A stretch of 64,000 nt of DNA from Escherichia phage vB_EcoP-101114UKE3, in the sequence record NC_070982.1, one strand, 5' to 3'. Position 1 is the first letter of the stretch. Each line of letters begins with the position of its first letter. The notes under the pieces are model-generated. The model had not been told where the DNA came from. It worked only from the letters and a program-made list of their open reading frames with translations, and did no database searches. A program made the translations under genes and the position numbers. Positions 2,954 to 64,000 of the stretch are shown here, one piece after another.

Positions 2954-3172
2954 ATGAAAATGATGAAACAGGTAACTTATGGTCTAGCTTGCTTAGGGAC
3001 AGGTTTTGTGATTTCCACAGCAGTACCTGTAAATGCAGTAGGCTCTCATTCTATTATAGAAGCTCCTGTAGAGAAGCTTAGTTCTCAATGTAAACAAAGG
3101 ACCATTCAAAATAATTTGGTTGTTATTTGCCCAGACGCTCAATCTTCAGCTCTGAGAAAAATTCTTCCTTAA
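2954..3172 (+). CDS. small membrane/secreted protein (holin candidate)
   Basis: SD aaaggag; N-terminal hydrophobic segment VTYGLACLGTGFVISTAVPV; immediately upstream of lysozyme. Confidence 0.35.
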   Translation: MKMMKQVTYGLACLGTGFVISTAVPVNAVGSHSIIEAPVEKLSSQCKQRTIQNNLVVICPDAQSSALRKILP

Positions 3173-3205: not shown

Positions 3206-3697
3206 ATGGACGCTATCGCATTGCCGCCTATACAGATGAGCCTAAGTCCGGCTGGTATGGAGTTTATCATGAAGCATGAAGGCATGAGAACTAAAGCCTA
3301 TAAAGACTCCGCTGGAATCTGGACTATATGTGTAGGGGCTACGCGCGATATGAATGGGTATCCAGTAAGACAAGGATTAACGTATTCTATAGAGGATTGT
3401 CTAGCTCTGCTAGATAGAGACACACAAGACTCTGTTCGTGCTACTCAGAAAAACATAAGAGTTCCTATGCTAGCTCATGAATTTGATGCTGTCACTTCTT
3501 TCAACTTTAATGTTGGTGGTGGTGCTTTGTCAGCTTCAAAACTTAGGAAAGTGATCAACGGAGATGTGAAGGGTGATGTTTACTCAGAGTTCTTACGTTG
3601 GGATAAGATAACTGTTAAAGGTGTAAAGCAGCGGAGTCCGGGACTTCACAATCGCAGGGTTGCAGAAGCAAATCTATACACTACAGGAAAATATTAA
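3206..3697 (+). CDS. lysozyme (GH24 muramidase, endolysin)
   Basis: HEGMRTKAYKDSAGIWTICVGAT motif typical of T4/lambda-type lysozymes; SD aaggagg. Confidence 0.8.
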   Translation: MDAIALPPIQMSLSPAGMEFIMKHEGMRTKAYKDSAGIWTICVGATRDMNGYPVRQGLTYSIEDCLALLDRDTQDSVRATQKNIRVPMLAHEFDAVTSFNFNVGGGALSASKLRKVINGDVKGDVYSEFLRWDKITVKGVKQRSPGLHNRRVAEANLYTTGKY

Positions 3698-9604: not shown

Positions 9605-10402
9605 ATGGATAGGATTTTAGGAGTTTCAGAACTAGACCCACTGGTTCAACAAGCTGCTAAGAAGTATGGTATTCCTGCTGCTCTTGTTCATGCGGTGATT
9701 CAGAGGGAGTCTAGTGGTAAACCCTCTGCCGCTTCAGGAACAGGGCCAGTAGGATTGATGCAGATTAGTAAAGGCTTGGCTAAAGATTATGGATATAAAC
9801 TTGAAGATAGGTTAGACCCTGCAAAGAATATTGACATGGGTGCTAGATATTTAAGAGATAACCTGAAAGCTTTTGACGGCGATGTGAGGAAGGCTTTGGT
9901 GGGGTATTCAGAAGGGACTGGTGGTGCTAAGCAAATGTTTGCTGGTAAGAAAGGGTTTACACCTCAAGCTTTAGATTCAATGAATAATAAGCTGTTCCTA
10001 CCATTCTTTGATAAGAACACAGCAGCGGCACAAGTGGCTAATCCTGTAGGTGCTTTGAAAGCAGTACAGCCTGTGGACCAGTTTGATTCTAATACGCTGA
10101 CTAGAGAAGGTGCTGCAAATGCTCCCACTCAAGCAGAGATGGCTGCAAGCAAGGCTGGGGCTTTGGGTGGTCGTCCTGTAGAGTTTTACTCTGATGAACA
10201 ACAGTCTGGAGAAGATCAAAAACCTCAACAGAACTTTGGTAATGCTGTGTTGGCAGCTGCTTCTATGCTTGCAGGAAAACAGCCTAACTCTCAAACTGTA
10301 CAGAGAGCACACGCCCCTACTCAAGCAGGTTCTCGATATAGTCCACAAACACAAGCTGTGCTGAGACGTCTGTCTAGCATAGGTACTGACATTTACAGAT
10401 AA
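9605..10402 (+). CDS. virion-associated lytic transglycosylase (SLT domain)
   Basis: IQRESSGKPSAASGTGPVGLMQI matches SLT catalytic E-S...GLMQ motif. Confidence 0.75.
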   Translation: MDRILGVSELDPLVQQAAKKYGIPAALVHAVIQRESSGKPSAASGTGPVGLMQISKGLAKDYGYKLEDRLDPAKNIDMGARYLRDNLKAFDGDVRKALVGYSEGTGGAKQMFAGKKGFTPQALDSMNNKLFLPFFDKNTAAAQVANPVGALKAVQPVDQFDSNTLTREGAANAPTQAEMAASKAGALGGRPVEFYSDEQQSGEDQKPQQNFGNAVLAAASMLAGKQPNSQTVQRAHAPTQAGSRYSPQTQAVLRRLSSIGTDIYR

Positions 10403-14148: not shown

Positions 14149-14159
14149 ATAATGTATAT
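14149..14159 (+). promoter_or_regulatory. phage-specific promoter-like motif TAATGTATATA
   Basis: motif 36 nt upstream of ATG 14195; near-identical copies upstream of three minus-strand genes. Confidence 0.5.
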
Positions 14160-21697: not shown

Positions 21698-21922
21698 TTA
21701 AACTACACAGAATAAATACATTGCTGTTTCAGGGGAAGGTATGTGGTCACTAGGATATCTAACCCTAATCCACTCATCATCTTCTGCTACATAATAAGCC
21801 CAATAAGACCCATTTTCATTAATAAAGAACTTGAAGGTACAACCAAAGATTTGGTTATTGTGTTCCCATACTGCATGAAACTGAGTAACACCTTCTGGTA
21901 TTGTAAGTTCCGCTCTGATCAT
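21698..21922 (-). CDS. hypothetical protein
   Basis: 74-aa ORF coupled to sigma gene. Confidence 0.35.
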   Translation of the reverse strand: MIRAELTIPEGVTQFHAVWEHNNQIFGCTFKFFINENGSYWAYYVAEDDEWIRVRYPSDHIPSPETAMYLFCVV

Positions 21923-22179
21923 TGTATTCCTCTCTCCTTTAGAGCTTTAAGCAAACCGTTGTGGTTAGCGGCACAGGTTGTATAAGTGTCCTGATACCAC
22001 TCGAGTGTTGTTGCAAGTGCTACTCCCTGTCCACTCTGAAGTAAAGGGAGGTCTACATCACATTCAGCTTTTAGGTTTGTTGGTAAGGGCATTAGCTGCC
22101 TGCTGTTGTCGCTCGTTGAACAAGCTGACATACTCATCACTAGCACACACATTGTAAAAAACTGGCTTAGTCTTTTCAT
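21919..22179 (-). CDS. o-spanin candidate (secreted/lipoprotein, Rz1-like)
   Basis: signal peptide ending SMSACS; overlaps 3' end of i-spanin gene in another frame. Confidence 0.55.
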   Translation of the reverse strand: MKRLSQFFTMCVLVMSMSACSTSDNSRQLMPLPTNLKAECDVDLPLLQSGQGVALATTLEWYQDTYTTCAANHNGLLKALKERGIQ

Positions 22180-22411
22180 AATGCATCTCTTTGTAAATAG
22201 TTTCCGTGTTCTTCTTCCAGTTAGATAAACCAGTCAGAACTTTCTGAGCCACTTCATCAGCAGCCTTAGCTCTCTCAACCTCAATCTCTTGCTGTTTCTT
22301 CTCATGGTCAAGAGCATTACTATCACTTCTGTATTGCTCAAACTTGACACCACCAAAGAAAATAATAGCTGTGAAAATAAGAAAGCCTATATTGTTTTGA
22401 AGCTTTTCCAT
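22064..22411 (-). CDS. i-spanin candidate (Rz-like)
   Basis: start MEKLQ at 22411 after terminator hairpin; N-terminal TM IGFLIFTAIIFFGGV then coiled coil. Confidence 0.55.
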   Translation of the reverse strand: MEKLQNNIGFLIFTAIIFFGGVKFEQYRSDSNALDHEKKQQEIEVERAKAADEVAQKVLTGLSNWKKNTETIYKEMHYEKTKPVFYNVCASDEYVSLFNERQQQAANALTNKPKS

Positions 22412-22423
22412 TTTAACTCCAAC

Positions 22424-22446
22424 GAAAAAAGCCACCCGAAGGTGGC
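22424..22446 (-). terminator. intrinsic terminator (TTCG hairpin plus U-run)
   Basis: minus-strand gccacc-ttcg-ggtggc followed by tttttt. Confidence 0.5.
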
Positions 22447-23268: not shown

Positions 23269-23279
23269 TATATACATTA
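23269..23279 (-). promoter_or_regulatory. promoter-like motif TAATGTATATA (minus)
   Basis: about 60 nt upstream of SSB start. Confidence 0.45.
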
Positions 23280-53740: not shown

Positions 53741-53816
53741 TGGTGCGCCCTACAGGACTCGAACCTGTAACCAATAGCTTAGAAGGCTACTGCTCTATCC
53801 GTTGAGCTAAGAGCGC
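53741..53816 (-). tRNA. tRNA-Arg(UCU): tRNA-Arg (anticodon UCU), CCA encoded
   Basis: hand-folded cloverleaf: 7-bp acceptor, D arm GCTC/GAGC, anticodon loop CTTCTAA, T arm ACAGG-TTCGAGT-CCTGT, discriminator A plus CCA. Confidence 0.85.
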
Positions 53817-53824
53817 GGAATTGT

Positions 53825-54034
53825 TTAACTGAAGATACGCAAGGCCACATCATGACCAATATGACCGGGAACTTTATGCTGCTCTATTTTCAAGCAGCGC
53901 TTACAGATACGAGATACACGAGACTCTTTTCTCTCTACTGGAGTGTCTTTAGCGTGAGTGATGTGTAGGTTTTCAGTGATCACCCACTCGTGTTTACATC
54001 CAGAATCTTCGGGCTTTTTCTTACGAAAGAACAT
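53825..54034 (-). CDS. small zinc-ribbon protein (triplet member)
   Basis: start MFFRKKK; CKHEW ... CKRC. Confidence 0.4.
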   Translation of the reverse strand: MFFRKKKPEDSGCKHEWVITENLHITHAKDTPVERKESRVSRICKRCLKIEQHKVPGHIGHDVALRIFS

Positions 54035-54042
54035 AACACCTC

Positions 54043-54207
54043 TTAGATCAGATCTGTTTTCTTGTGCAGACCACACACTTTACAGCGAGAGTAGATACGC
54101 AACCCTTGTCGCTCTCTGTCAGTAAGTTTATTTGTGATCGTCAGTTCATAAGTATGAAGATCTTCCCACTCATGGAAATGAAATAGACGTTTGAACCATT
54201 TGATCAT
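54043..54207 (-). CDS. small zinc-ribbon protein (triplet member), not in ORF track
   Basis: 54 aa MIKWFKRLFHFHEW...CKVCG; near-duplicate N-terminus of 54217..54402. Confidence 0.4.
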   Translation of the reverse strand: MIKWFKRLFHFHEWEDLHTYELTITNKLTDRERQGLRIYSRCKVCGLHKKTDLI

Positions 54208-54216
54208 AATGATTCC

Positions 54217-54402
54217 TTAGATTACATCACGATGACTAATATCACCACACACCTTACACTGAATAATGTAACGTGTGCCCTTGTCATTGTTCCCATCTGA
54301 ATCCGTATAGACCAGAGGACGGGTGTTAATAATCTTCCAATCATGACAATGGAAGACACGCTTTAGCCACTTAATCATATTAAGCACACGCCGGTAATTC
54401 AA
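54217..54402 (-). CDS. small zinc-ribbon protein (triplet member)
   Basis: MIKWLKRVFHCHDW...CKVCG. Confidence 0.4.
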   Translation of the reverse strand: MNYRRVLNMIKWLKRVFHCHDWKIINTRPLVYTDSDGNNDKGTRYIIQCKVCGDISHRDVI

Positions 54403-54637
54403 TTAACTGAGGAGTACGACAAGGGCCATCCTCATACACACCTACCAGTGTTGGCATGTAAGGCCCAGCGCACTGGTATTCATCGAACAGTTCATTGTAA
54501 GTAGGCTTCCACTTCCAAGCCCACACATAACCCATTCGATCAATGGCAATGTAACGAGTGTTCAGAGGAACCTGCATCATCACATCACCAACTGCTATTA
54601 CTTTCGTAATAACTGCTGCTCGGAAGTTTGTCTTCAT
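54380..54637 (-). CDS. hypothetical protein
   Basis: 85-aa ORF. Confidence 0.35.
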   Translation of the reverse strand: MKTNFRAAVITKVIAVGDVMMQVPLNTRYIAIDRMGYVWAWKWKPTYNELFDEYQCAGPYMPTLVGVYEDGPCRTPQLIELPACA

Positions 54638-54942
54638 GACTTTGCAGCCTCCATCATTTTATTCATTTTAGCCACACCTTTACGGATAAGAGGCATAAAT
54701 TCATCAGCCAGTTCAGTGGATAAAAGTTTAAGCCCGCCTGATTTAATACCGTTCACCGCCTTCTCAACTTCATCCGACAGCAATGTCATTGTTAACCACG
54801 GGGATTTTATTACCACAGTAAAGCCCGGTTCATACCGCGAGTGACTGTAGGTGAACTCTAAATGAGTAACACCGGGCATCTTAGACATTTGAGCACGGAT
54901 ATCTACATTAGGGTTGCAGCGAGTTGAAGATGAAATTGTCAT
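54634..54942 (-). CDS. hypothetical protein
   Basis: 102-aa ORF. Confidence 0.35.
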   Translation of the reverse strand: MTISSSTRCNPNVDIRAQMSKMPGVTHLEFTYSHSRYEPGFTVVIKSPWLTMTLLSDEVEKAVNGIKSGGLKLLSTELADEFMPLIRKGVAKMNKMMEAAKS

Positions 54943-55190
54943 GGCGCTTTAATCTCAATCTGAACGTTGACGACGAATACAGTATGGTTTGCACTGTACA
55001 CTGAAGTGCCTATGATTGGCTTATCATCACTGAGGATTTCAACAGCGTGCTCAAGGTTAATCTTCAGATGAAGACGCCCTGATTCCATGAAGAAATCACC
55101 AGCACGTATCTCACCGAACTTAGCTGGCACACCGATAGAGGGTATCAGTATGTCAGTGCGACCTTTACGGTCAAATAAACGATTGAACAT
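54939..55190 (-). CDS. small protein, five-member paralog family
   Basis: IRAGDFFMESGRLHLKIN. Confidence 0.45.
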   Translation of the reverse strand: MFNRLFDRKGRTDILIPSIGVPAKFGEIRAGDFFMESGRLHLKINLEHAVEILSDDKPIIGTSVYSANHTVFVVNVQIEIKAP

Positions 55191-55199
55191 ATCACCCCC

Positions 55200-55409
55200 T
55201 TATGTAATATCAACCTCAAACCAACAGGTAAGAGCTTTTTCATTGTTGCGTTTTGGCTCAAAGGATTTAACAACCGATAACACTCGGCGCTGTTCTCCAT
55301 CAAACCAGATAGTTTCATCTTTTTCAGGGAGTAGGTTGTGTGCAGCACAAACAATCTCACCTAGTACAACCTGTCTGCCATCTTGCTTACGAACTAAACG
55401 AATGTTCAT
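55200..55409 (-). CDS. small hypothetical protein
   Basis: start MNIRLV after terminator hairpin. Confidence 0.35.
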   Translation of the reverse strand: MNIRLVRKQDGRQVVLGEIVCAAHNLLPEKDETIWFDGEQRRVLSVVKSFEPKRNNEKALTCWFEVDIT

Positions 55410-55452
55410 AACAACCTCTCTTGTTAGTTTAAGTAAGAGTTGTCCCTTAATT

Positions 55453-55483
55453 AAAACAACAAAGGCCACCCCTAAGGGCAGCC
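55453..55483 (-). terminator. intrinsic terminator
   Basis: minus-strand ggcugccc-uuag-ggguggcc with two G-U pairs (C-A on plus strand), then U-rich run. Confidence 0.5.
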
Positions 55484-55489
55484 TCTTAT

Positions 55490-55693
55490 TTAAGCGCAAG
55501 CACTACGCAGTTTGTTATTCAAGAAGCGATCTTCTGCATTATACAGGAATGCATAGAACAACTCTTTTGCTACATCCCGATCGCAATTGAGACATTTAGA
55601 GATCTGTAACAACAAACCATCACGACTATTAGGATGGTCAATTATCGCAAGACGAATAATCTCACGAATACCAATGTCATGCTCAGCCGCCAT
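55490..55693 (-). CDS. small hypothetical protein
   Basis: 67-aa ORF. Confidence 0.35.
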   Translation of the reverse strand: MAAEHDIGIREIIRLAIIDHPNSRDGLLLQISKCLNCDRDVAKELFYAFLYNAEDRFLNNKLRSACA

Positions 55694-56083
55694 AGAACCA
55701 ATCACCCTGACGTTTACGAATGTTAGTTGTCAGACGAAGCATGGCAGACTCAATCTTCAGAGCACCATTTGCTACTGCATCCATACGTTCAGGACGGTTC
55801 ATACGTTTGGTTGTCTTTTTCATAATGTTCTCTCTTTATTGATGGAGGCAGGATTGCCAGTTAATATAAAGGGAAGCCCTACACGTTAAGACTTCCGCTT
55901 GTACAAACTGTCGAGAACTCTCTACCCCTAGATTGTTCTCTATCCCAAACCGATACATACCCCTACATATCGGAAAGCTGTTCGAAAATTAACAGGTTTT
56001 AGTCTATCACCGGATGTTTGAGACAAGTCTCGCCCTAGCGGTGAGCCATATGGCGTTGAGATTATAGTTAATTGAGGAACACC

Positions 56084-56130
56084 CTCACATAGCCCTCTGA
56101 TAAACACAAGGGCTATAAGTCGATGTTACT
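56084..56130 (-). repeat. conserved hairpin element, copy B
   Basis: CACATAGCCCTCTGATAAACACAAGGGCTATAAG directly after stop of 56130..56360. Confidence 0.5.
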
Positions 56131-56360
56131 TAACCATTAATATGAGTTACTTGAACATCAGGTACAGGGATAACTTCATGGTCTTCCTGTAATTGGAACA
56201 GTGTCCCCTGACTAAGACCAACCACACGATGCATATCGTTAAGTCTAGTGTCTGTCTTTAGGTAGACATTTTCAGAGTTAGTTGGTAAACGGAACACATC
56301 GCCCGGACGTAACTCACTGAGCTTTTTAGTAACAACTACAGAGAAGAGATTAATTTTCAT
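56130..56360 (-). CDS. small protein, five-member paralog family
   Basis: LRPGDVFRLPTNSENVYLKT ... VVGLSQGTLFQLQED. Confidence 0.45.
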   Translation of the reverse strand: MKINLFSVVVTKKLSELRPGDVFRLPTNSENVYLKTDTRLNDMHRVVGLSQGTLFQLQEDHEVIPVPDVQVTHING

Positions 56361-56533
56361 TTGATTAACACCAAATCAGTACGACGTTCGAAGGAAGGGG
56401 AGGATTCACCATTCCACTGAACAAGATAACAGAGAACACCATCAATCGTTGTTCTCCGACGAATAACACCTGTAACAGTTCCACCAACAAGACGAACGGT
56501 GTCGCCAACGGTAAATTTAACCTTTGAGCGCAT
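56357..56533 (-). CDS. small hypothetical protein
   Basis: start MRSKVKF with AGGAG SD. Confidence 0.35.
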   Translation of the reverse strand: MRSKVKFTVGDTVRLVGGTVTGVIRRRTTIDGVLCYLVQWNGESSPSFERRTDLVLIK

Positions 56534-56822
56534 CTCCTGTTTCCTCATTCTGGCGTTTAATTTCTTCAGTGAGTTGCTTATTAAGATCTTGAATACGCTT
56601 AATCTCCCAACCCAAAGAAGCCAAACGATCGTTACGTGCTTCGATTTGTTCCTGCATTTTAAGTAATTTGGAACGAACATCAGCATTAAAAACTTCTTCT
56701 TGCTTAAGAAGGAACTCGTAACGACGCTTCCAGCTTGCTGATTTATTTCTTAAAATAATAAACCCTAGAGTAGAAACCGTTACAGTGAGTACGAAAAGGA
56801 ACTTATAAACCTCTAAAGACAT
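56517..56822 (-). CDS. membrane-anchored coiled-coil protein
   Basis: N-terminal TM then helical E/K-rich region. Confidence 0.4.
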   Translation of the reverse strand: MSLEVYKFLFVLTVTVSTLGFIILRNKSASWKRRYEFLLKQEEVFNADVRSKLLKMQEQIEARNDRLASLGWEIKRIQDLNKQLTEEIKRQNEETGDALKG

Positions 56823-57023
56823 ATCTTTATCCTCTTAAAGTAAGATATTATAAGAAATATTATTTAGAATTTATTATTTCTAAACTTAATTCCTATCAAT
56901 AATTTTCAGAGGTCTATATACAGTCATTACCTCTGGTCCCAAATCACTTCCACTTTTTACAGAGAAAATCATAAGTGTGTGATTTATAAGGAAATTTAGT
57001 TTGTCAATATTGGCACTTATGAA

Positions 57024-57410
57024 TCAGTCACGGGAGCTGTTATTGAACACTAAATCACCACAATACATCGGATTGGTATACCACTTTGGCACCCCTTCGC
57101 TCTTACTCTGAAAGTATGTACCGCTGTACAAAGGCACATAACCTTTCTTCAGTGCACGCCTTGCAAGCCGCTCGCTCTCTCTGATTGATTTCTTTATCAG
57201 AGGGTTATCATCACGAATTAGCTTTACATAACGCTTAAAAGGTTTCTCCTTCTTTAATAGGACGGGTATCCACTCGAACTGGTTTCGTTGATTTATAACC
57301 TGCTCGGCAGTCAGTTTTCGTTGTGACATTCTGTTTATTACGGTATCCGCTACTAATGCTTTGCAAGCGGTTGGCTGATTCCCTGCCTCATAATAAATAG
57401 TCAATGTCAA
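57024..57410 (-). CDS. SleB/CwlJ-like cell-wall hydrolase domain protein
   Basis: IYYEAGNQPTACKALVADTVINR matches IYAEARGEP..AV..V.NR core motif. Confidence 0.5.
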   Translation of the reverse strand: MTLTIYYEAGNQPTACKALVADTVINRMSQRKLTAEQVINQRNQFEWIPVLLKKEKPFKRYVKLIRDDNPLIKKSIRESERLARRALKKGYVPLYSGTYFQSKSEGVPKWYTNPMYCGDLVFNNSSRD

Positions 57411-57462
57411 AAGTAGCTGGGCTGTCGTTATCAGAACTTACTACCCCCTTGTTTTACGGGCA

Positions 57463-57489
57463 TAAAAAAGCCCCATCCGAAGACGGGGC
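57463..57489 (-). terminator. intrinsic terminator (TTCG hairpin plus U6)
   Basis: minus-strand gccccguc-uucg-gauggggc (G-U only on this strand) then uuuuuu. Confidence 0.55.
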
Positions 57490-57727
57490 GACCTGAAAGA
57501 GTGAACATGACCTCACTCATTTAAGAATCCTCGTAAAGACTCTTAAAAAAGAGGCCTCGTTAAAGGCCCGGTCAAATGACCATCCAATAGGGATTGAACC
57601 ATGCCAATGATTCACAAAGGGAGTTCCCTTTAGGTATCACTAGCTACGCAAAAAGCCGCACAAAGGCGGCAGACAAAGACGCTCAAGAAGAGCGTCATAG
57701 TAGTTGACCACTGGTCCAGAAGAGGGC

Positions 57728-58171
57728 TTACTTAACTCTTGCTGTTTTGAGTGGGTCAATATATTTTTCAACTCCCCACTTATGTTTACTATCAGCGTAG
57801 AAAACATCTGGTGCACATTGGCTAGTAGTAGGAAATGCTTTCGGTGGCTTAGTGCTACCTTTATTCTTCTGCTTACCTTTAGTGCGACCATTACAAAAGA
57901 TTTCTAAACGTTTTTCTTGTTCTGTTTTTGCTGCACCATTGGTTAACAGAGAACGCTTGTGATCAGCAAGAAGAAGCGCATCAGCACGATGAACACGACG
58001 ACCTAACACCTTCGCTACGGTAGAAGGTTTATGTTCTTGAGCGGCTTGTTTGATAGCTCTTCGTTTAAGGCTACGTTTGCTAATATGGTTAACAGCGGCT
58101 GGCTTTTCTTTTTCCAGCTCATTCATAGAGAACACTCGTCCGCCTTTCATGCTGATTTTAGATTTAGCCAT
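57728..58171 (-). CDS. hypothetical basic protein
   Basis: 147-aa K/R-rich ORF. Confidence 0.4.
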   Translation of the reverse strand: MAKSKISMKGGRVFSMNELEKEKPAAVNHISKRSLKRRAIKQAAQEHKPSTVAKVLGRRVHRADALLLADHKRSLLTNGAAKTEQEKRLEIFCNGRTKGKQKNKGSTKPPKAFPTTSQCAPDVFYADSKHKWGVEKYIDPLKTARVK

Positions 58172-58241
58172 TGTTTTATTCCTTTCGCTGATAAATTATA
58201 TCATGCAAGCCTTACCACATAGCAAGGCTTAACCAAATAAC

Positions 58242-58451
58242 TTAATCAATTAAACTAAACGATTTCCAACTACGTGTAATTGCTACCTTTTCGCCATCAA
58301 AGAGAACACTTACAGAGATCAGTTTACCGCGACAACTGGATACCGTGGTAATACGTCCGGTTAATGCCTTACCTTTATTCAGGTAGTGATAGCGGACACG
58401 ACGTCCTAACAAACGAGTAGCTTTCTTCTCTAACGTGCTTAAGCTGGTCAT
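58242..58451 (-). CDS. small hypothetical protein
   Basis: 69-aa ORF. Confidence 0.35.
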   Translation of the reverse strand: MTSLSTLEKKATRLLGRRVRYHYLNKGKALTGRITTVSSCRGKLISVSVLFDGEKVAITRSWKSFSLID

Positions 58452-58672
58452 TAAATAGCCCCTTTATGTTGGAGTGATCTTACACGACGATACATAACAG
58501 TTGATGCACTAATCGCCGCTTGTTTTCTTTCGTGCTCATGCTGATTCTTTCGAATCTTATCCATCTCGGCATCATTACGACGACGTTGTAAGATTCTGCT
58601 ACATTTGCGATGGTTGTTATTAGCACGTGCTTTCTTACAGATAGGGCAAAGGTGGGATTGAGTTAAAATCAT
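58451..58672 (-). CDS. small basic zinc-finger protein
   Basis: CPIC...C motif. Confidence 0.35.
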   Translation of the reverse strand: MILTQSHLCPICKKARANNNHRKCSRILQRRRNDAEMDKIRKNQHEHERKQAAISASTVMYRRVRSLQHKGAI

Positions 58673-58893
58673 TTGCGAAGCCCTAACTTACGAAGGAATC
58701 GGCCTAGCTTAGTTTCCTGCGTGATAGTGTAAGTAACAGAGTTTTCAATCAATGCTTGTTCTTGAATCGGCGACGGATACCACTCGCCAGTAAGAATGCA
58801 TTTGCATTCGATTCCGTATTTATCGGTTTTACGATATGTCATGTTGTTGAGAATGTTACGATACATCTTAACTTCTGTTTTCAGTTTTGGCAT
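58669..58893 (-). CDS. small hypothetical protein
   Basis: 74-aa ORF. Confidence 0.35.
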   Translation of the reverse strand: MPKLKTEVKMYRNILNNMTYRKTDKYGIECKCILTGEWYPSPIQEQALIENSVTYTITQETKLGRFLRKLGLRK

Positions 58894-59001
58894 GGTGTTT
58901 ATCTCTTTTTAGTTTCTTTGATTAGTACACTGAATCAATGCACTAGTAAAAGAAAAGGCGCTACCCTTTCGAATAGCGCCTTATGTGTTCTTTATTGTTG
59001 G

Positions 59002-59904
59002 TTATGCTGCCTGTTGGCGTGCTGCCATGATTTCGGCAGCTTTGCGCAACACTTCTTCTTCTTCCTGCGCAGCTTTCTCGTTCGCTTTGATAGTTGAAGC
59101 ATTTGAGATGCGACCACGAAGGTTAGACAATTTTTCAGTCATTTCGTTGATCGCTTTTTCCATTTCATCAGCGTATGAGTCCAGAGATTCAAGCTCTTTA
59201 GTCGAGGCATTAATCAGGTAGTCGTCGCTGATAGATACAGTTGATGCGGTCACTTTCTTAAGGAGTGAATCGAAAGTTTTCTTAACTTTGCCTACTTCTT
59301 CACTCAATGCGATAGTATTGTCAGAAGATGCGCCGTTGCGTTCATCTGCCAGTAGTGCCGCTTCAATACGGATTGCAGCCAGACGGTCAACCAGTGCATA
59401 AATATCCTGATTAAAGTTTTCGTTAACCTTCTGGTTGATTTGATTTGCTACCGGAACATTGTCGTTGCAACCTTTGTAGAATGCTGGGTTATCAACCTGC
59501 ACGTCTTCACCTTTAGCAAAGCGTTCAAAGGAATTAGACCAGCGGGCGCGGTTTTGTTCCATTTTGGCCTTAACTTGTTCCGGTTTAGCATCCTCTTTCG
59601 CTTTCGCTTCACCTTCCAGATTAATCCATTTCTTTTTACCGTTCGCCCCGTCAGTGTTATATTTGATAGGAGTAAGGAAAGAGATTGCAACCGAAATTAC
59701 ATCTAAATCACGATAACGCTCAGTTAACAAGAAATCAACCGCCGCCTGCAATACATCCAGTTTCTTACCGTTGGTGCGGAAGTGCTGCAAATGGCCTAAC
59801 AGGAAGTTAGAAACATCTTGTTTGATTGCCGCGTTGTTGCTACGAATGTTGTTAGCCAGTGCATTAAAGCCGGATTCGTTAACCAGATTAAAAACTTTAG
59901 CCAT
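59002..59904 (-). CDS. hypothetical early protein
   Basis: ATG 59904 (MAKVFNL) with AAGGTG SD; helical with E/K-rich C-terminus. Confidence 0.45.
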   Translation of the reverse strand: MAKVFNLVNESGFNALANNIRSNNAAIKQDVSNFLLGHLQHFRTNGKKLDVLQAAVDFLLTERYRDLDVISVAISFLTPIKYNTDGANGKKKWINLEGEAKAKEDAKPEQVKAKMEQNRARWSNSFERFAKGEDVQVDNPAFYKGCNDNVPVANQINQKVNENFNQDIYALVDRLAAIRIEAALLADERNGASSDNTIALSEEVGKVKKTFDSLLKKVTASTVSISDDYLINASTKELESLDSYADEMEKAINEMTEKLSNLRGRISNASTIKANEKAAQEEEEVLRKAAEIMAARQQAA

Positions 59905-59971
59905 GATATTCACCTTTCAATTGTAAGGGCACTATGCCCCGCTCTCTATGAGCTTTTTAAGTCACTATTGA

Positions 59972-60007
59972 CTTATCAATAATCACTCAATATCAAGTAA
60001 TTATTGA
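59972..60007. promoter_or_regulatory. perfect 11-bp inverted repeat TTATCAATAAT / ATTATTGATAA
   Basis: arms separated by about 15 bp, 70 nt upstream of first early gene. Confidence 0.4.
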
Positions 60008-60720
60008 TAAGCGAGGCGGTCTTATCAGGAGTTAACCTTGCCGCCTCCTTATCCGTGATGTTTCATCTGGTATCTTTAATTAGTCGCTATAAATAAAGCC
60101 GACCTGATAGCGATGATCAATCATCACAATAAGGCAGTGCGTCCGACTCTATTTAATTACTTTATCGTAACCGTCGGCAATATCGTCTACTTTGCTTTCG
60201 CTCCCGCCTATCCTTTTGTACTAACTCTCAATCGCTAACCATCGCCCACTACGGGAGGTTATTGCGAAAGAGTCATTAGCCGTCTAATACATTGACGTTT
60301 TATATCTTTCAGCAGGTTTACTACATAAACTGATTATGTACGCCATCAATAGTGGCCTCAAATCATTCACATCGTAAACGTTCACACTAAACCTTATTGT
60401 TAAATAGCAATTTGCCACTTTTTAACCATTCACCGCCGCCCCCAATTGGGCGTTAATTCGTCGGATTTGCCTACCCTGATAAACTTCTTTCACTGTAGCA
60501 CCTTGTTAGCGATGGCCGCCGCTACCCTTTAACCGTGGGCGATTAGTTTAGGCCGTTGCGTGTACTCAATGAATCCGTTTTATCAGTGGTGACGTTTCCA
60601 GTTAAGGGATTGTAAAAACTGTTTACCCTGATAATTTAGGGAGTCTTACGCCGTTTTATCTGGTATGTTTTCCGATGGTTATTATCATCCAACATATTCA
60701 ACCGATATAGGAGAATGTTT

Positions 60721-60737
60721 AAATTGTTAAAGAGCGG
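60721..60737. repeat. 17-bp repeat AAATTGTTAAAGAGCGG (copy 1)
   Basis: exact copy at 61088-61104; core TTAAAGAGCGG also near 60958 and partial near 61498. Confidence 0.5.
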
Positions 60738-60823
60738 TAAATCTATCAGTGTGCTTTCTCACACTATGCAACTGTTAGCCGTTGTTACGCTTTTCTTAAG
60801 CGGTGAATTGCTTAAGTGTGCTC

Positions 60824-60852
60824 ATTATGAATCATGCTGTTTTAGCTGTCAA
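60824..60852 (-). promoter_or_regulatory. sigma70-type early promoter P1
   Basis: minus-strand TTGACA, 17-nt spacer, CATAAT. Confidence 0.5.
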
Positions 60853-60990
60853 CCGCTTTTTTAATCTTTTTCGTCGTTCCCTTTATTGGGAGGATATATC
60901 AATCAGCTATATTTGATTGAAGATTAAGCGGTAAGGCTTAACTCACGATTCATATTTTTAAAGAGCGGTGTTTCTTACTGCTTGGTGAAC

Positions 60991-61018
60991 ATTCTATCAG
61001 AGTATTTCACCTTGTCAA
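60991..61018 (-). promoter_or_regulatory. sigma70-type early promoter P2
   Basis: minus-strand TTGACA, 16-nt spacer, extended -10 TGATAGAAT. Confidence 0.5.
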
Positions 61019-61087
61019 CTCTTTTTATCATCTTCTTTTATTCTATTCCCTTATCTCGCTTGAATCTATGCGAAAGGGCAAGATGAT

Positions 61088-61104
61088 AAATTGTTAAAGA
61101 GCGG
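61088..61104. repeat. 17-bp repeat AAATTGTTAAAGAGCGG (copy 2)
   Basis: exact repeat of 60721-60737. Confidence 0.5.
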
Positions 61105-61149
61105 GGCACTAAGTGCCGGATGTTTCAAGTCATCGCTGACCGTGTGAAC

Positions 61150-61177
61150 ATCTTATCATAATGATTCGATGTGTCAA
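61150..61177 (-). promoter_or_regulatory. sigma70-type early promoter P3
   Basis: minus-strand TTGACA, 16-nt spacer, extended -10 TGATAAGAT. Confidence 0.45.
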
Positions 61178-61239
61178 CAACTATTTTTCGATTAATGCAT
61201 CTTGATAAACTAGCGACCGTTAAGGCCGCTAACCTTACC

Positions 61240-61440
61240 TTAGTTCATACGTTTAAAGGTTAAATCTTTATCTGTACTTACCAGCGATAACACCGCAATA
61301 GCTTTGCCTTTATCGGCATCGGCTACCATCTCTTTTGCCTGCTGTAATGTACTACCGACTATTCTCATAATCATGTTAGTAACGTTAATGCTAGTGCAAG
61401 TGATTTGCGTGTCTTTGCTTGAGAAGGTGTAGATGTTCAT
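61240..61440 (-). CDS. small hypothetical protein
   Basis: start MNIYTF with GAGGA SD. Confidence 0.35.
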   Translation of the reverse strand: MNIYTFSSKDTQITCTSINVTNMIMRIVGSTLQQAKEMVADADKGKAIAVLSLVSTDKDLTFKRMN

Positions 61441-61799
61441 TGATAAATCCTCGTTATGGCATGGTTGAGAGTTTATCAAGATACACTAATCGAATTATTA
61501 AAGAGCAAGGCTAAACATCTAGCCTATCAGGAGGTAACTTACTGCATCACGTCCTGATAAGATTCAATATACACTATCCTAAAACCGTTGCAAGTCTTTT
61601 TCTAAAATAATTTCACTTTCTTTTAGGCATAAAGGAACGAACACACGAATAACATCAAGGGAGGAAGAAAACAAGCTCTATAATCGAAATCTAGGCACAT
61701 AGGAAGCATCCTAGCGAGCTAAACAGGGGCAAGATGTGCAATCACCTTAGAAATGAAAAAAGCGCCTCAAAAGGGCGCTTAGAGAGTCTTACGGATTGG

Positions 61800-62126
61800 T
61801 TACGGATTGGTGCAAGTGCCGTTACCGGATGATATTTCGTTCATCGACTCATCGAACAACGTCATGCTAGACCGCATCATGTGATCTATAGTGATTTGCT
61901 TTCCGGTAATTTCGTTAACAAGCATTGCAGACTTACTATCAACTATCTTGCTGTCGTAGTCGTTCAGGTCAATCAATACTACCTTGCTGGACTTCTTGCC
62001 AGTGTCGTAGTTTTCCATAAGATAGGTGCATTGCAGACCATCTAAACTAGCCTCGTTGAATACGGCAGCATAGGACACGGAAGAAATAGCGAACAAAGCA
62101 GAACATACAGCTAATTTAATTTTCAT
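61800..62126 (-). CDS. small secreted protein
   Basis: signal peptide MKIKLAVCSALFAISSVSYAA. Confidence 0.45.
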   Translation of the reverse strand: MKIKLAVCSALFAISSVSYAAVFNEASLDGLQCTYLMENYDTGKKSSKVVLIDLNDYDSKIVDSKSAMLVNEITGKQITIDHMMRSSMTLFDESMNEISSGNGTCTNP

Positions 62127-62218
62127 GATCCAACCCTTAAGCGGAACGTGCAACAAAGAAAAACAAGTCATAGATAAATGCTATGATACAGAGAACTAAC
62201 AGACAATGCAAAAAATAC

Positions 62219-62491
62219 TTATGTAACATTACTCACCACTTTATCTAGATGATCATCGAACGTTTCACAAATGGATTGCACTTCGTCAATATCTAGTAAC
62301 AGACCGTGACGGGCAAAGAATTGAGCTAACTCAAGATAATCCGCACCAATAAGCATGACACCATTGAAAGGGGCGATCTTAACATCTTGAGATGTTACCA
62401 ATAATAAATTACCAATATCAGCAATAGCGTCATAATTCAGCGTAACGCCTACACCGTAATTGTGTGTTTCAATAATGGCAATAGTTTCCAT
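62219..62491 (-). CDS. hypothetical acidic protein
   Basis: 90-aa ORF coupled to upstream gene. Confidence 0.4.
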   Translation of the reverse strand: METIAIIETHNYGVGVTLNYDAIADIGNLLLVTSQDVKIAPFNGVMLIGADYLELAQFFARHGLLLDIDEVQSICETFDDHLDKVVSNVT

Positions 62492-62493
62492 CG

Positions 62494-62742
62494 TTAATTA
62501 TCCTCGACGGTTAGTAGTTCTTCCAGTGACAAACCGGATTTAACCAGCAAATCACGATATTCGTTAGCATCCATCGGATCGAGGCCGGATAATCGGGCAA
62601 CGGTCATGCGTGCATGTGCTGAAGACAAGGAAGCTAAAGCACGGATAGGGATCAATACAAGCCCATATTTACCGCTGATAACTAAATCACCGTGCTGGAT
62701 GCACATATGAGCATTTACTACGATTGCAAATGATTCATTCAC
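62494..62742 (-). CDS. hypothetical protein
   Basis: 82-aa ORF, start overlaps upstream stop. Confidence 0.4.
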   Translation of the reverse strand: MNESFAIVVNAHMCIQHGDLVISGKYGLVLIPIRALASLSSAHARMTVARLSGLDPMDANEYRDLLVKSGLSLEELLTVEDN

Positions 62743-63239
62743 TGGATAGCCTCACAATTAGCAAAGTTAATAAAGGTTGTATAAACTGCTACACCGTCAT
62801 GATATGCAGTCGTAGCGAGTATGGTTTCACTTACATCACCATAGCTAACGAGATTAGTTACAAACTGTAATTTCTCTTTCTCAACCTTCTGATACAGAGA
62901 ATACGTCACCATATCGTGATCACTATCAGCACGTTTCAATTTAATGACTGACTGAGTGCCGGATTTCTCGCCCAATGGGGTAAGAGTGACACGCACATTA
63001 GCGGTAGTGACTTCATTGAAGTGAACACGCCAGAATGCATCATTGCCATCACTTCCAACGTCACGGCAAGCCATATCAGGAGCGTTCTTAAATGTGCTAA
63101 CAAAAGATTGCAGACCAGTAGGAGCGGATAACCTCTTATCATCTTTAGCCTGCACATTGGTAGCGATAGCACTAACACCGATAGCTGCAACCAGTGCATA
63201 AGACGCTAGATTGATAGCCTGCATTGCTTTGATAGCCAT
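62739..63239 (-). CDS. secreted/periplasmic protein
   Basis: start MAIKAMQ with AGGAG SD; signal peptide ending ATNVQA. Confidence 0.45.
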   Translation of the reverse strand: MAIKAMQAINLASYALVAAIGVSAIATNVQAKDDKRLSAPTGLQSFVSTFKNAPDMACRDVGSDGNDAFWRVHFNEVTTANVRVTLTPLGEKSGTQSVIKLKRADSDHDMVTYSLYQKVEKEKLQFVTNLVSYGDVSETILATTAYHDGVAVYTTFINFANCEAIQ

Positions 63240-63520
63240 TATTACTACTCCTGATAGATGAAAGATTGTTTGTCGTGTGTAGTTACTTAGGCTGATCAAC
63301 CTTCACTACTCACTATCACCGCTAACTACTTTACATCACTGCTTCATTAACGATAATTCAAACTACGATTGCAACTATATATTAAAGGAAAAACATGTCA
63401 ACCACTTATTTTCAAACTCTTTCATAACTCACTGAATATAAAAGGAATTTAATTTACTAAACTTTCTTACTCAGAGATACAGCTTACCAAATAGATGTTA
63501 TTTTATAACACTTACAGAAC

Positions 63521-63615
63521 GGGTAGCAGACCAACGGGATAGATAGATGGGTAAGACGTGCCGCATAGGTTAGCCAATGGGTAAGAAGCCTAACGAGGAA
63601 GGGGAAACGGGTAGG
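63521..63615. repeat. cluster of five GGGTA(A/G)G-type short repeats
   Basis: GGGTAG, GGGATAG, GGGTAAG, GGGTAAG, GGGTAGG at 13-30 bp spacing in ORF-free DNA. Confidence 0.45.
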
Positions 63616-63688
63616 ATATAATGTAAGTTAGTTACAGGTAACAGGTCAGACCATGCGGTAATAAATTACCAGTCAAATTCCTACTCAT

Positions 63689-63760
63689 CAAAAGAAAAAA
63701 GAAACGCTGAAAAAAGAAAAGAATAAAAGAAAGAATAAAAATAATAACTAAAGTAAACAA
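63689..63760. repeat. 70-bp purine (A/G) tract on plus strand
   Basis: aaaagaaaaaagaaacgctgaaaaaagaaaagaataaaagaaagaataaaaataataa. Confidence 0.5.
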
Positions 63761-63848
63761 CTACCAGTCTAATGATACATACATCAATAATCCACTCATG
63801 AAACATTAACATAGGTTATTACTATTAAACTTGGGGTAGTGTGAGGAT

Positions 63849-63857
63849 TGTTATAAT
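63849..63857 (+). promoter_or_regulatory. extended -10 element TGtTATAAT (rightward)
   Basis: perfect TGnTATAAT; weak -35; target lies beyond window. Confidence 0.3.
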
Positions 63858-64000
63858 TGCATGGTGTTACCATTACTAACCTCACTATGATAGCCCTTAC
63901 TATTAGCCCTCTTATTATCACCCCTTAACAGTACATCAGAGTCTAGCCTTTCATCCTTCCTTAACATGAGTAGAAGAAATACGGGTGGGATATTACTGGT

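Follow-up and report, generated by a model that had tools for sequence, protein, structure and literature searches.

Among described enzymes, SleB and CwlJ of Bacillus share a catalytic domain family with the phage protein considered here. SleB, whose catalytic domain is represented by structures 4F55 and 4FET, carries a signal peptide and a PG_binding_1 domain and is specific for muramic-delta-lactam; CwlJ is a single domain without a peptidoglycan-binding domain. The glutamate of the SleB motif YGESRGE, which we take to be the catalytic residue of the lytic transglycosylase family, was reportedly identified as catalytic in the SleB structure papers of 2012. A functional analogy is offered by T7 lysozyme gp3.5, a small leaderless muralytic enzyme that is encoded outside that podophage's late lysis genes and binds T7 RNA polymerase; in T7, too, an SLT-domain protein belongs to the virion, and holin and spanins are encoded at separate places.

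Members of the same catalytic family occur in phages of Gram-negative hosts. They include the Chaseviridae endolysins (Erwinia phage Faunus gp75; phiEcoM-GJ1 type), of which that of Faunus is encoded directly after the holin/antiholin gene. The SleB-like protein of the Vequintavirinae (CB7_83, CR3_087) has a signal peptide and is linked to lysis through a report that it is toxic when expressed and that a homolog is implicated in lysis (PMC7344957). In both groups the protein has either an N-terminal extension of 50-70 residues or a signal peptide, and its gene lies in or beside a lysis cassette, whereas the hydrolase described below is leaderless and lies in an early cluster. A lysozyme-type endolysin and a second Hydrolase_2 protein have been reported together in other coliphages (PMC10793346, PMC12031403).

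The closest relatives outside Kuravirus, at 31-35% identity, are found in phages 7-11 (AEK82026; host Salmonella), GAP52 (gp023; Cronobacter), BUCT695 (gp021; Aeromonas) and Proteus phage Privateer (gp098). The Privateer protein is labelled 'hydrolase' and the other three 'endolysin'. All fall in the same length class, begin with a hydrophobic helix, hold the same position in a leftward non-structural cluster and have a hairpin or terminator just upstream, which in 7-11 is annotated as a terminator at the equivalent relative place. They start at a canonical ATG or TTG, unlike the CTG that we propose below for Kuravirus. Phages 7-11 and GAP52 lack the holin and GH24 lysozyme pair of Kuravirus (PMC4281155). 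Privateer encodes this hydrolase together with a separate endopeptidase, which its authors named the endolysin (PMC7881722); because they assign a different protein, the ortholog is not obviously the lysin even where GH24 is missing. Within Kuravirus, the orthologs phiEco32 gp117 and SU10 CDS116 were both published without a function.

The DNA analyzed here is a 64,000-nt stretch of Escherichia phage vB_EcoP-101114UKE3 (NC_070982.1), hereafter the window. Over bases 56000-59000 it matches Escherichia phage vB_EcoP-101114BS3 (MZ234015; Gordonclarkvirinae, Kuravirus) at 100% identity and about 15 further phiEco32-like podophages at 92-98%, a range that also covers the BASEL phages Bas86-88 (Bas86, 98%). 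Its gene layout follows the phiEco32 plan throughout. A rightward late/structural module occupies approximately the first 18.6 kb and is followed by leftward middle and early clusters (PMC8948821, section 3.1). The genes with a known or predicted relation to the cell wall are as follows.

2954-3172, plus strand: holin candidate of 72 aa with a single transmembrane segment, equivalent of SU10 CDS14, directly upstream of the lysozyme.
3206-3697, plus strand: GH24 phage lysozyme (PF00959, E=1e-30), equivalent of SU10 CDS15.
9605-10402, plus strand: SLT-domain protein (PF01464, E=8e-26).
22064-22435, minus strand: i-spanin, with an N-terminal transmembrane segment.
21919-22179, minus strand: o-spanin, with a lipobox-like MSMSAC, overlapping the i-spanin.
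57024-57410, minus strand: Hydrolase_2 (SleB/CwlJ-type) gene, read as 128 aa from its TTG; its orthologs are phiEco32 gp117 and SU10 CDS116.

A preliminary description of this DNA had counted three peptidoglycan-active domains, and HMM searches matched all three (Hydrolase_2, GH24 and SLT). It had also placed a spanin pair about 19 kb from the lysozyme and had called the lysis genes dispersed. We recognize the pair at 21919-22435 from its sequence features, an HMM search for it having given no match, and the lysozyme and the spanins indeed occupy separate loci.

The Hydrolase_2 assignment of the open reading frame at 57024-57410 is sound. The single sequence matches Pfam Hydrolase_2 (PF07486, 'Cell Wall Hydrolase') at E=3e-7 and 31.4 bits, a small margin over the gathering cut-off of 27 bits, and all 31 aligned relatives match the same family, the best at E=4e-25. 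When a profile of the 31 relatives was compared with the PDB, only two matches were returned, and both were SleB catalytic domains (4F55, E=2e-12; 4FET, E=9e-12); a phmmer search of the PDB with the single hydrolase sequence returned nothing meaningful. Thus the SleB-like domain call made from the letters alone is borne out by the HMM search, with PF07486 above its cut-off and SleB structures retrieved by the family profile. An exhaustive HMMER scan yielded 28,888 cluster representatives at E<=1e-3, and orthologs are found in about 97 Kuravirus-like records and in the Grimontviridae. Among the PHROGs, the protein matches family 12974, which has no assigned function, at E=2e-83, and the 'endolysin' family 938 only weakly, at E=4e-6.

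The conserved residues of the family include those of the putative active site. The GAG codon at 57387-57389 (minus strand) encodes the predicted catalytic glutamate, which is E8 in the 128-aa reading and E16 in a 136-aa reading discussed below. This residue together with A9, R27, V38, Q44 and F45 (numbering of the 128-aa reading) is invariant in the 31 sequences, at identities down to about 23-27%, and Y6, G10, Q41, W47, P93, F100, P108, W110 and F122 are nearly so. E8 aligns with the glutamate of YGESRGE in both 4F55 and 4FET, and the phage protein and SleB/CwlJ have in common a Y-x-E-[AS]-x-G motif with its glutamate in helix 1, as well as NR, QF and C-terminal F/W segments. The Pfam model begins past this glutamate (its profile position 2 corresponds to residue 12), so Pfam coverage fails to flag gene calls that are truncated ahead of it.

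The predicted fold is also SleB-like. AlphaFold2 models of the 128-aa and 136-aa forms reached mean pLDDT values of 90.5 and 88.5, respectively. In a Foldseek search of the PDB with the 136-aa model, 4FET_B, 4FET_A and 4F55 were the top three matches (probability 1.0, TM 0.58-0.64, E about 5e-3), and the next match had E>2, while the same search with the 128-aa model returned noise only and did not retrieve SleB. Against BFVD, the 128-aa model matched phage SleB-domain proteins at TM 0.55-0.70. Superposition on SleB is predicted at a TM of about 0.6, and the identity is only about 18%. The phage subfamily differs from SleB by about 40 additional, mostly helical residues between two conserved blocks, and it has neither the signal peptide nor the PG_binding_1 domain of SleB. 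The protein, of about 15-16 kDa and with a pI of about 9.8, appears to be a bare catalytic domain, a Pfam search having found in it no second domain and no peptidoglycan-binding domain; in this it is like CwlJ. We recognize the Kuravirus and 7-11-type proteins as one leaderless subfamily with a helical insertion. By analogy with other Hydrolase_2 members, which do so by means of a single catalytic glutamate in the first helix, we infer that the enzyme would cleave peptidoglycan in its glycan strands. SleB's specificity for muramic-delta-lactam cannot apply, because the host is Gram-negative and does not sporulate.

The gene is intact and under strong purifying selection. Relative to phiEco32, its dN/dS is about 0.07 (dS about 0.98, dN about 0.07), values against four other relatives range over 0.07-0.15, and the reading frame is unbroken in every full-coverage Kuravirus-like protein match. 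Its published annotation in the MZ234015 and SU7 records starts at an internal codon.

57327-57329, minus strand: ATG inside the gene, taken as its start in the MZ234015 and SU7 records, giving a 101-aa product without the catalytic glutamate.

This start is a miscall, for three reasons. In the 27 codons from TTG 57410 to this ATG, the differences from phiEco32 are 7 synonymous and 0 nonsynonymous; the family's best-conserved motif, LTLTIYYEAGNQP...VADTVINR, is encoded by these codons; and the 101-aa versions carry no recorded Pfam match, and the one for which BFVD has a predicted structure, from phage EP335, fits the full model poorly (TM 0.29). The coordinates 57024-57410 proposed in the preliminary description are therefore better than those in the database, as they retain the region of the catalytic glutamate.

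Where translation does begin is a separate question, to which the following features are relevant.

57411-57434, minus strand: probable N-terminal extension of 8 codons, with a CTG start at 57434-57432, giving a 136-aa protein with the glutamate at residue 16.
57444-57450, minus strand: Shine-Dalgarno sequence AAGGGGG, 9 nt before the CTG and 33 nt before TTG 57410.

A strong Shine-Dalgarno sequence is present in every Kuravirus locus examined, as AGGAGG in most and as AAGGGGG here, and in the phiEco32 clade the same element precedes an ATG one codon ahead of the TTG position. No ATG, GTG or TTG was found at a workable distance from it. The CTG at 57434-57432, on the other hand, is invariant and in frame, with stop codons immediately before it. 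Its reading has a counterpart in a sister lineage: homologs on the metagenomic contigs L044 and L046 (proteins P0010-P0014 and P0045), 65-74% identical and 135-136 aa long, start at a TTG just past AGGAGG. Their first sixteen codons read M-L-T-T-A-A-L-L-L-T-L-T-I-Y-H-E, and the codons of the window from the CTG (CTG-ATA-ACG-ACA-GCC-CAG-CTA-CTT-TTG-ACA-TTG-ACT-ATT-TAT-TAT-GAG) are colinear with this TTG-initiated reading, codon for codon.

The pattern of variation within Kuravirus also points to translation of this segment. In the eight codons from GTT, just 5' of the CTG, to CTA, the variable sites are ACG/ACA, ACA/ACG, GCC/GCA and CTA/CTG, so that all four are synonymous third positions; the chance of this is about (1/3)^4 = 0.012, with the reservation that the events are not all independent. 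The two codons ahead of GTT vary between stop and sense among Kuravirus genomes. Counted from the CTG, the glutamate is residue 16, within the range of 14-19 seen in leaderless relatives; the TTG or ATG calls put it at residue 8 or 9, closer to the N-terminus than in any other member of the family. AlphaFold2 models the extension as added length on helix 1, which in the long form spans residues 4-17 (pLDDT 88 over the first ten residues), and only with this form was SleB retrieved from the PDB.

On these grounds, CTG 57434 is probably the start codon. Initiation at TTG 57410 is a possibility to which we assign rather less than even odds, and we give hardly any credence to a start at any other position. 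The frame and the stop end given in the preliminary description hold; its upstream limit does not, as the coding region is probably 24 nt longer, to CTG 57434. The N-terminal peptide predicted from a CUG start is (M)ITTAQLLLTLTIYYEAGNQPTACK. We considered a hairpin that would bring the Shine-Dalgarno sequence near the TTG or ATG 33 nt away, in the manner of T4 gene 38, and rejected it, the GGGGGUAG/CUACUUUU pairing being absent in the phiEco32 clade. This pairing does exist in the window's own clade. A long-range pairing of the Shine-Dalgarno sequence with a C-rich motif just past the gp120 stop codon is at most suggestive.

The transcription of the gene was approached through its promoters and terminators.

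63401-63374, 61177-61150, 61018-60991 and 60852-60824, minus strand: sigma70-like promoters with a perfect TTGACA.
58982-58955, minus strand: strong terminator between the early promoters and the gene.
57490-57727, minus strand: intergenic leader, dense in hairpins, that separates the gp120 homolog from the hydrolase gene.
57655-57670, 57678-57696 and 57552-57569, minus strand: terminator-like hairpins in the leader.
57470-57489, minus strand: intrinsic terminator with an 8-bp GC-rich stem, a UUCG loop and a U6 tract; the Shine-Dalgarno sequence follows after about 20 nt.
56823-57023, minus strand: AT-rich downstream spacer; a promoter annotated in SU7 for the next genes is equivalent to about 56847-56874.

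The four sigma70-like sites correspond to published early promoters of SU10, which Table S2 of the SU10 paper places upstream of CDS125 (one) and between CDS120 and CDS121 (three). SU10 CDS69-125 were assigned to the early class by their authors after the model of phiEco32, for which the temporal classes are reported to have been measured (PMC4281155, PMC8948821), and CDS116, the ortholog of the hydrolase gene, lies inside this range. The middle/late promoter element of gp36, TAATGTATA, has perfect matches at 14150, 23271, 23342 and 29828, and no such site occurs on the minus strand within several kb of the hydrolase gene. By analogy, then, the gene belongs to the leftward, host-sigma70-driven early cluster; its earlier placement among early genes agrees with the phiEco32/SU10 comparison, the sigma70-like promoters and the lack of a nearby gp36 element. 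Closer to the gene, no sigma70-like site with at least 9 of 12 matches was found in 57440-57727. A TTGACA that overlies TTG 57410 was considered as the gene's own promoter and discarded, having no usable -10 hexamer at 16-18 nt.

Between these promoters and the gene, the DNA is unusually rich in structure. The region holds 9 terminator-like sites against 3.5 +/- 2.2 in shuffled sequences, and the leader at 57435-57730 (296 nt) folds at -121.8 kcal/mol against -84.7 +/- 5.0 in shuffles (z=-7.4). The terminator at 57470-57489 is kept in most Kuravirus loci. A search of 55500-60500 against Rfam gave no family at its gathering score (the best, anti-hemB, reached 20 bits against 49.5), ARAGORN found no tRNA in the hairpin-rich leader, and a search for direct repeats over 54000-64000 gave nothing linked to the gene. 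Downstream, no terminator was found, and the spacer folds like its shuffles (z=-1.0). The claim that the gene is bracketed by strong terminators is thus right on the upstream side, with four terminator-like hairpins, and wrong on the downstream side. Because transcription would have to read through terminators and the start codon is probably a weak one, CUG or UUG, expression is expected to be low; the arrangement suggests a gene that depends on terminator read-through.

The hydrolase is leaderless and, by a crude hydropathy test, has no export signal. Its maximum 19-residue Kyte-Doolittle hydropathy is 0.29 in the 128-aa form and 0.71 in the 136-aa form, while leader-bearing relatives typically reach about 1.4-2.7, with a few lower; there is no basic n-region, and at most 15 uncharged residues precede the glutamate. 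The finding of no signal peptide, made beforehand from the sequence, therefore stands within the limits of this test. The use made of it, as an argument against an endolysin role, does not. Canonical holin-dependent endolysins such as lambda R and T4 E are themselves leaderless, so the lack of a leader is no argument against a role in lysis. Among 172 motif-bearing sequences of the family, the leaderless ones number 75; in the other 97 an N-terminal extension of about 20-90 residues is present, in most cases a clearly hydrophobic leader; the leaderless share of about 44% is only indicative, as the sample consists of the top matches plus earlier matches and includes near-duplicates.

These data bear on whether the enzyme could be exported or tethered to the membrane, reaching the periplasm without a holin by means of a SAR-like N-terminal helix and remodelling the wall before lysis. 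All leaderless relatives have uncharged, hydrophobic residues ahead of the glutamate (MITTAQLLLTLTIYY, MSWFMCWLALTLNIYT), and true N-terminal signal anchors occur in more distant relatives (P0037-P0040; the 97 extended sequences). Against this, just 13-18 residues precede the catalytic glutamate, the basic n-region is absent, and the hydropathy falls far below that of leader-bearing relatives. Moreover, the uncharged residues correspond to helix 1 of the SleB fold, a stretch that in several relatives includes acidic residues at positions 2-5 (MEASMAV, MTGAEIA), so a SAR-type anchor is unlikely. No weakly hydrophobic transmembrane segment of roughly at least 18-20 residues lies ahead of the catalytic residues. 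SAR and lipoprotein signals were accordingly rejected on length, charge and hydropathy, and we regard an exported or tethered enzyme as very doubtful.

We propose, with a probability of about 0.45, that the protein serves as an accessory muralytic enzyme beside the GH24 lysozyme, and that it is weakly expressed, cytoplasmic and dependent on the holin. Small amounts would be made in the cytoplasm by transcription that reads through two to five terminators and translation from a weak CUG or UUG start. Alone, the enzyme could not reach the wall and would be harmless until the late holin (2954-3172) fires; once the inner membrane is opened, it would degrade the wall alongside the GH24 endolysin. 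In 7-11 and GAP52, which have no GH24 lysozyme, the ortholog may bear more of the lysis load. Relatives favor a part in lysis, namely the Faunus and Vequintavirinae proteins and the orthologs of 7-11 and GAP52 annotated as endolysins; the assignment made in Privateer speaks against it. The predicted protein resembles a canonical endolysin in being a soluble member of a muralytic family without a secretion signal, and departs from one in its position and presumed timing, lying 54 kb from the holin and GH24 genes in an early cluster on the opposite strand. The gene also lies outside the structural module, where a virion-associated hydrolase would be sought, and CDS116 does not appear in the available part of the SU10 mass-spectrometry table, in which 28% of the proteins predicted were detected, a weak negative result. 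Several points weigh against an accessory lysin. The distance of 54 kb from the holin-lysozyme pair and the different temporal class make for an atypical arrangement. SleB-type enzymes and GH24 lysozymes cut the same MurNAc-GlcNAc bond, so the second activity appears redundant. The helical insertion of some 40 residues relative to SleB raises, in addition, the question of the substrate cleft.

The main alternative is an early job outside lysis, whether host takeover, moonlighting regulation through binding of a phage or host protein, or the processing of cytoplasmic muropeptide or precursor pools, with the muralytic fold retained partly for another purpose. The gene lies amid early host-takeover genes and far from the holin, its early/middle leftward position is syntenic across Gordonclarkvirinae and Grimontviridae, its neighbors are often Ter-family, SPFH or KilA-N genes, the helical insertion is specific to the subfamily, and the phage already has a full set of holin, endolysin and spanins. 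What speaks for retained enzymology instead is the strict conservation of the catalytic glutamate and the other family-invariant residues, and to our knowledge the cytoplasm contains no polymeric glycan substrate; we consider such a job unlikely, if well worth keeping in mind. A narrower version has all prolate C3 podophages (Gordonclarkvirinae, Grimontviridae) keeping in their early/middle cluster a leaderless SleB-type enzyme that is insulated behind a terminator and, in Kuravirus, CUG-started. The enzyme would then be a tightly dosed early factor with no part in lysis, either a moonlighting regulator like T7 lysozyme or an enzyme with wall precursors or recycling products as its substrates during takeover; we judge this improbable. 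The T7 analogy is a functional one: gp3.5 is an amidase of another fold and chemistry, and it regulates T7 RNA polymerase, whereas Kuraviruses use the host polymerase with the phage sigma factor gp36.

The opposite proposal, with the hydrolase as principal endolysin and some other role for the GH24 protein, could draw on the 'endolysin' labels of the orthologs in 7-11, GAP52, vB_CsaP_009 and BUCT695. These labels were given by similarity only, the Privateer authors assigned a different protein, and in the window the GH24 gene immediately follows the 72-aa holin gene in the late module. Because of this last arrangement the hydrolase is plausibly not the principal endolysin, a part that likely falls to the GH24 lysozyme; the verdict 'unlikely endolysin' of the preliminary description thus remains plausible for the principal enzyme, for this reason and not for its lack of a leader, and we hold the converse to be highly improbable. 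A gene that has lost its canonical start behind terminators might also be catalytically dead or decaying, its product unmade or truncated. No ATG, GTG or TTG stands at normal Shine-Dalgarno spacing, the first ATG falls past the catalytic glutamate, and GenBank annotators called the 101-aa form only. Yet the low dN/dS holds over the whole gene, the codons ahead of ATG 57329 have changed at synonymous sites alone, the Shine-Dalgarno sequence and the extension are conserved with every difference in the extension synonymous, and no full-coverage Kuravirus-like match has a broken frame, so that decay deserves next to no credence. The accessory muralytic enzyme remains our preferred, tentative reading.

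The exact protein and its orthologs are on deposit, and some records already carry the domain assignment: the SU10 and PAS59 orthologs appear in UniProt as 'Cell wall hydrolase SleB domain-containing protein', and in GenBank the orthologs from phages Paul, ShigP1 and EcP-vB are labelled 'cell wall hydrolase'. The present analysis adds a correction to the gene model, a start that is probably CUG, the recognition of a leaderless subfamily and the observation that insulation by a terminator is common to several lineages. The finding is an ordinary one, and its practical value lies in the annotation fix. Several deposited Kuravirus genomes use the internal ATG and thereby lose the catalytic glutamate; with such short gene models and an 'unknown function' entry in PHROGs, lysin mining in therapy-relevant phages would miss or mis-clone this hydrolase. 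The question of why a phage should carry a second or third glycan-cutting enzyme beside a full holin, endolysin and spanin set is shared with rV5-like, Phapecoctavirus and Goslar-type phages. Should initiation at CUG prove right, the gene would provide a clean natural case of near-cognate initiation, in which a near-cognate start codon and terminator read-through together dose a potentially toxic enzyme.

Between the gene upstream, a homolog of gp120, and the SleB/CwlJ-type hydrolase gene lies a leader with strong predicted structure. The leader and a C-rich motif at its edge have these positions.

57435-57730, minus strand: intergenic leader of 296 nt, folding into about ten hairpins in series.
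57728 region, and the equivalent place in other loci: C-rich motif GCCCTCTT/CCCCCTCTTTT, just 3' of the gp120-homolog stop codon.

The leader folds at -121.8 kcal/mol (z=-7.4), and none of 200 shuffles reached equal stability. Searches of this leader for Rfam and tRNA matches found none, and the three ORFs of 29-39 codons annotated within it in MZ234015, the record of phage vB_EcoP-101114BS3 (101114BS3_100 to _102), seem doubtful. Single hairpin modules are shared in mosaic fashion with other Kuraviruses and with L046, a sister-lineage metagenomic contig. The C-rich motif, as GCCCTCTT or CCCCCTCTTTT, directly follows the gp120-homolog stop codon in most Kuraviruses, and the minimum-free-energy structure has it paired to the hydrolase Shine-Dalgarno site 280 nt away. 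This predicted pairing might occlude the ribosome-binding site at long range, or else be a coincidence.

One point in this interval looks like an insertion hot spot, because the inserts found there differ between genomes. In phiEco32 (L003 1590-2523) the insert consists of genes 119 ('agglutinating adhesin') and 118, placed precisely after the conserved terminator and before the hydrolase Shine-Dalgarno site, with gene 118 overlapping the start of gene 117, the hydrolase ortholog; other genomes carry different inserts at that point (loci L051 and L053).

Two points concern how deposited records annotate the hydrolase gene and the ORF downstream.

57024-57329 (short call) versus an upstream end at 57410/57434 (long call), minus strand: hydrolase gene (101114BS3_099 in MZ234015; SU7_108; family protein P0012; EP335 A0A2Z3DJI5).
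56517-56822, minus strand: 101-aa ORF, for which many Kuravirus records give 'DNA helicase'.

Several deposited Kuravirus genomes start the hydrolase gene at an internal ATG, which yields 101 aa and loses the catalytic Glu. No Pfam match is on record for the 101-aa hydrolase products, and the predicted structure of the EP335 product (A0A2Z3DJI5) is a poor match. The downstream ORF, also 101 aa, is far shorter than a helicase and gave no Pfam match at E<=0.01; its label is probably an error carried between records.

Promoter elements, repeats and a tRNA were located elsewhere in the window.

53741-53816, minus strand: one tRNA-Arg (anticodon TCT), within the early cluster.
60720-60737, 60951-60968, 61087-61104: 18-nt direct repeat TAAATTGTTAAAGAGCGG (identity 100%, 83% and 100%).
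14150(+), 23271(-), 23342(+), 29828(-): sites matching perfectly the gp36 middle/late promoter element of phiEco32, TAATGTATA.

Three sigma70-like early promoters stand in tandem at 60824-61177, and the three repeat copies alternate with them. Two of the gp36 elements, at 23271 and 23342, are paired divergently, and no perfect copy occurs beyond ~34.7 kb of the window, which fits the early-cluster boundary.

In more distant relatives, the hydrolase ortholog adjoins TerB, TerD, TerZ or 'tellurite resistance' genes, a KilA-N gene, or an SPFH/band-7 gene (L044 7025-8311; L046 6838-8124; L005 1124-3914; L078 510-2334; L006 1355-2293). Membrane- and stress-type genes are its repeated surroundings there.
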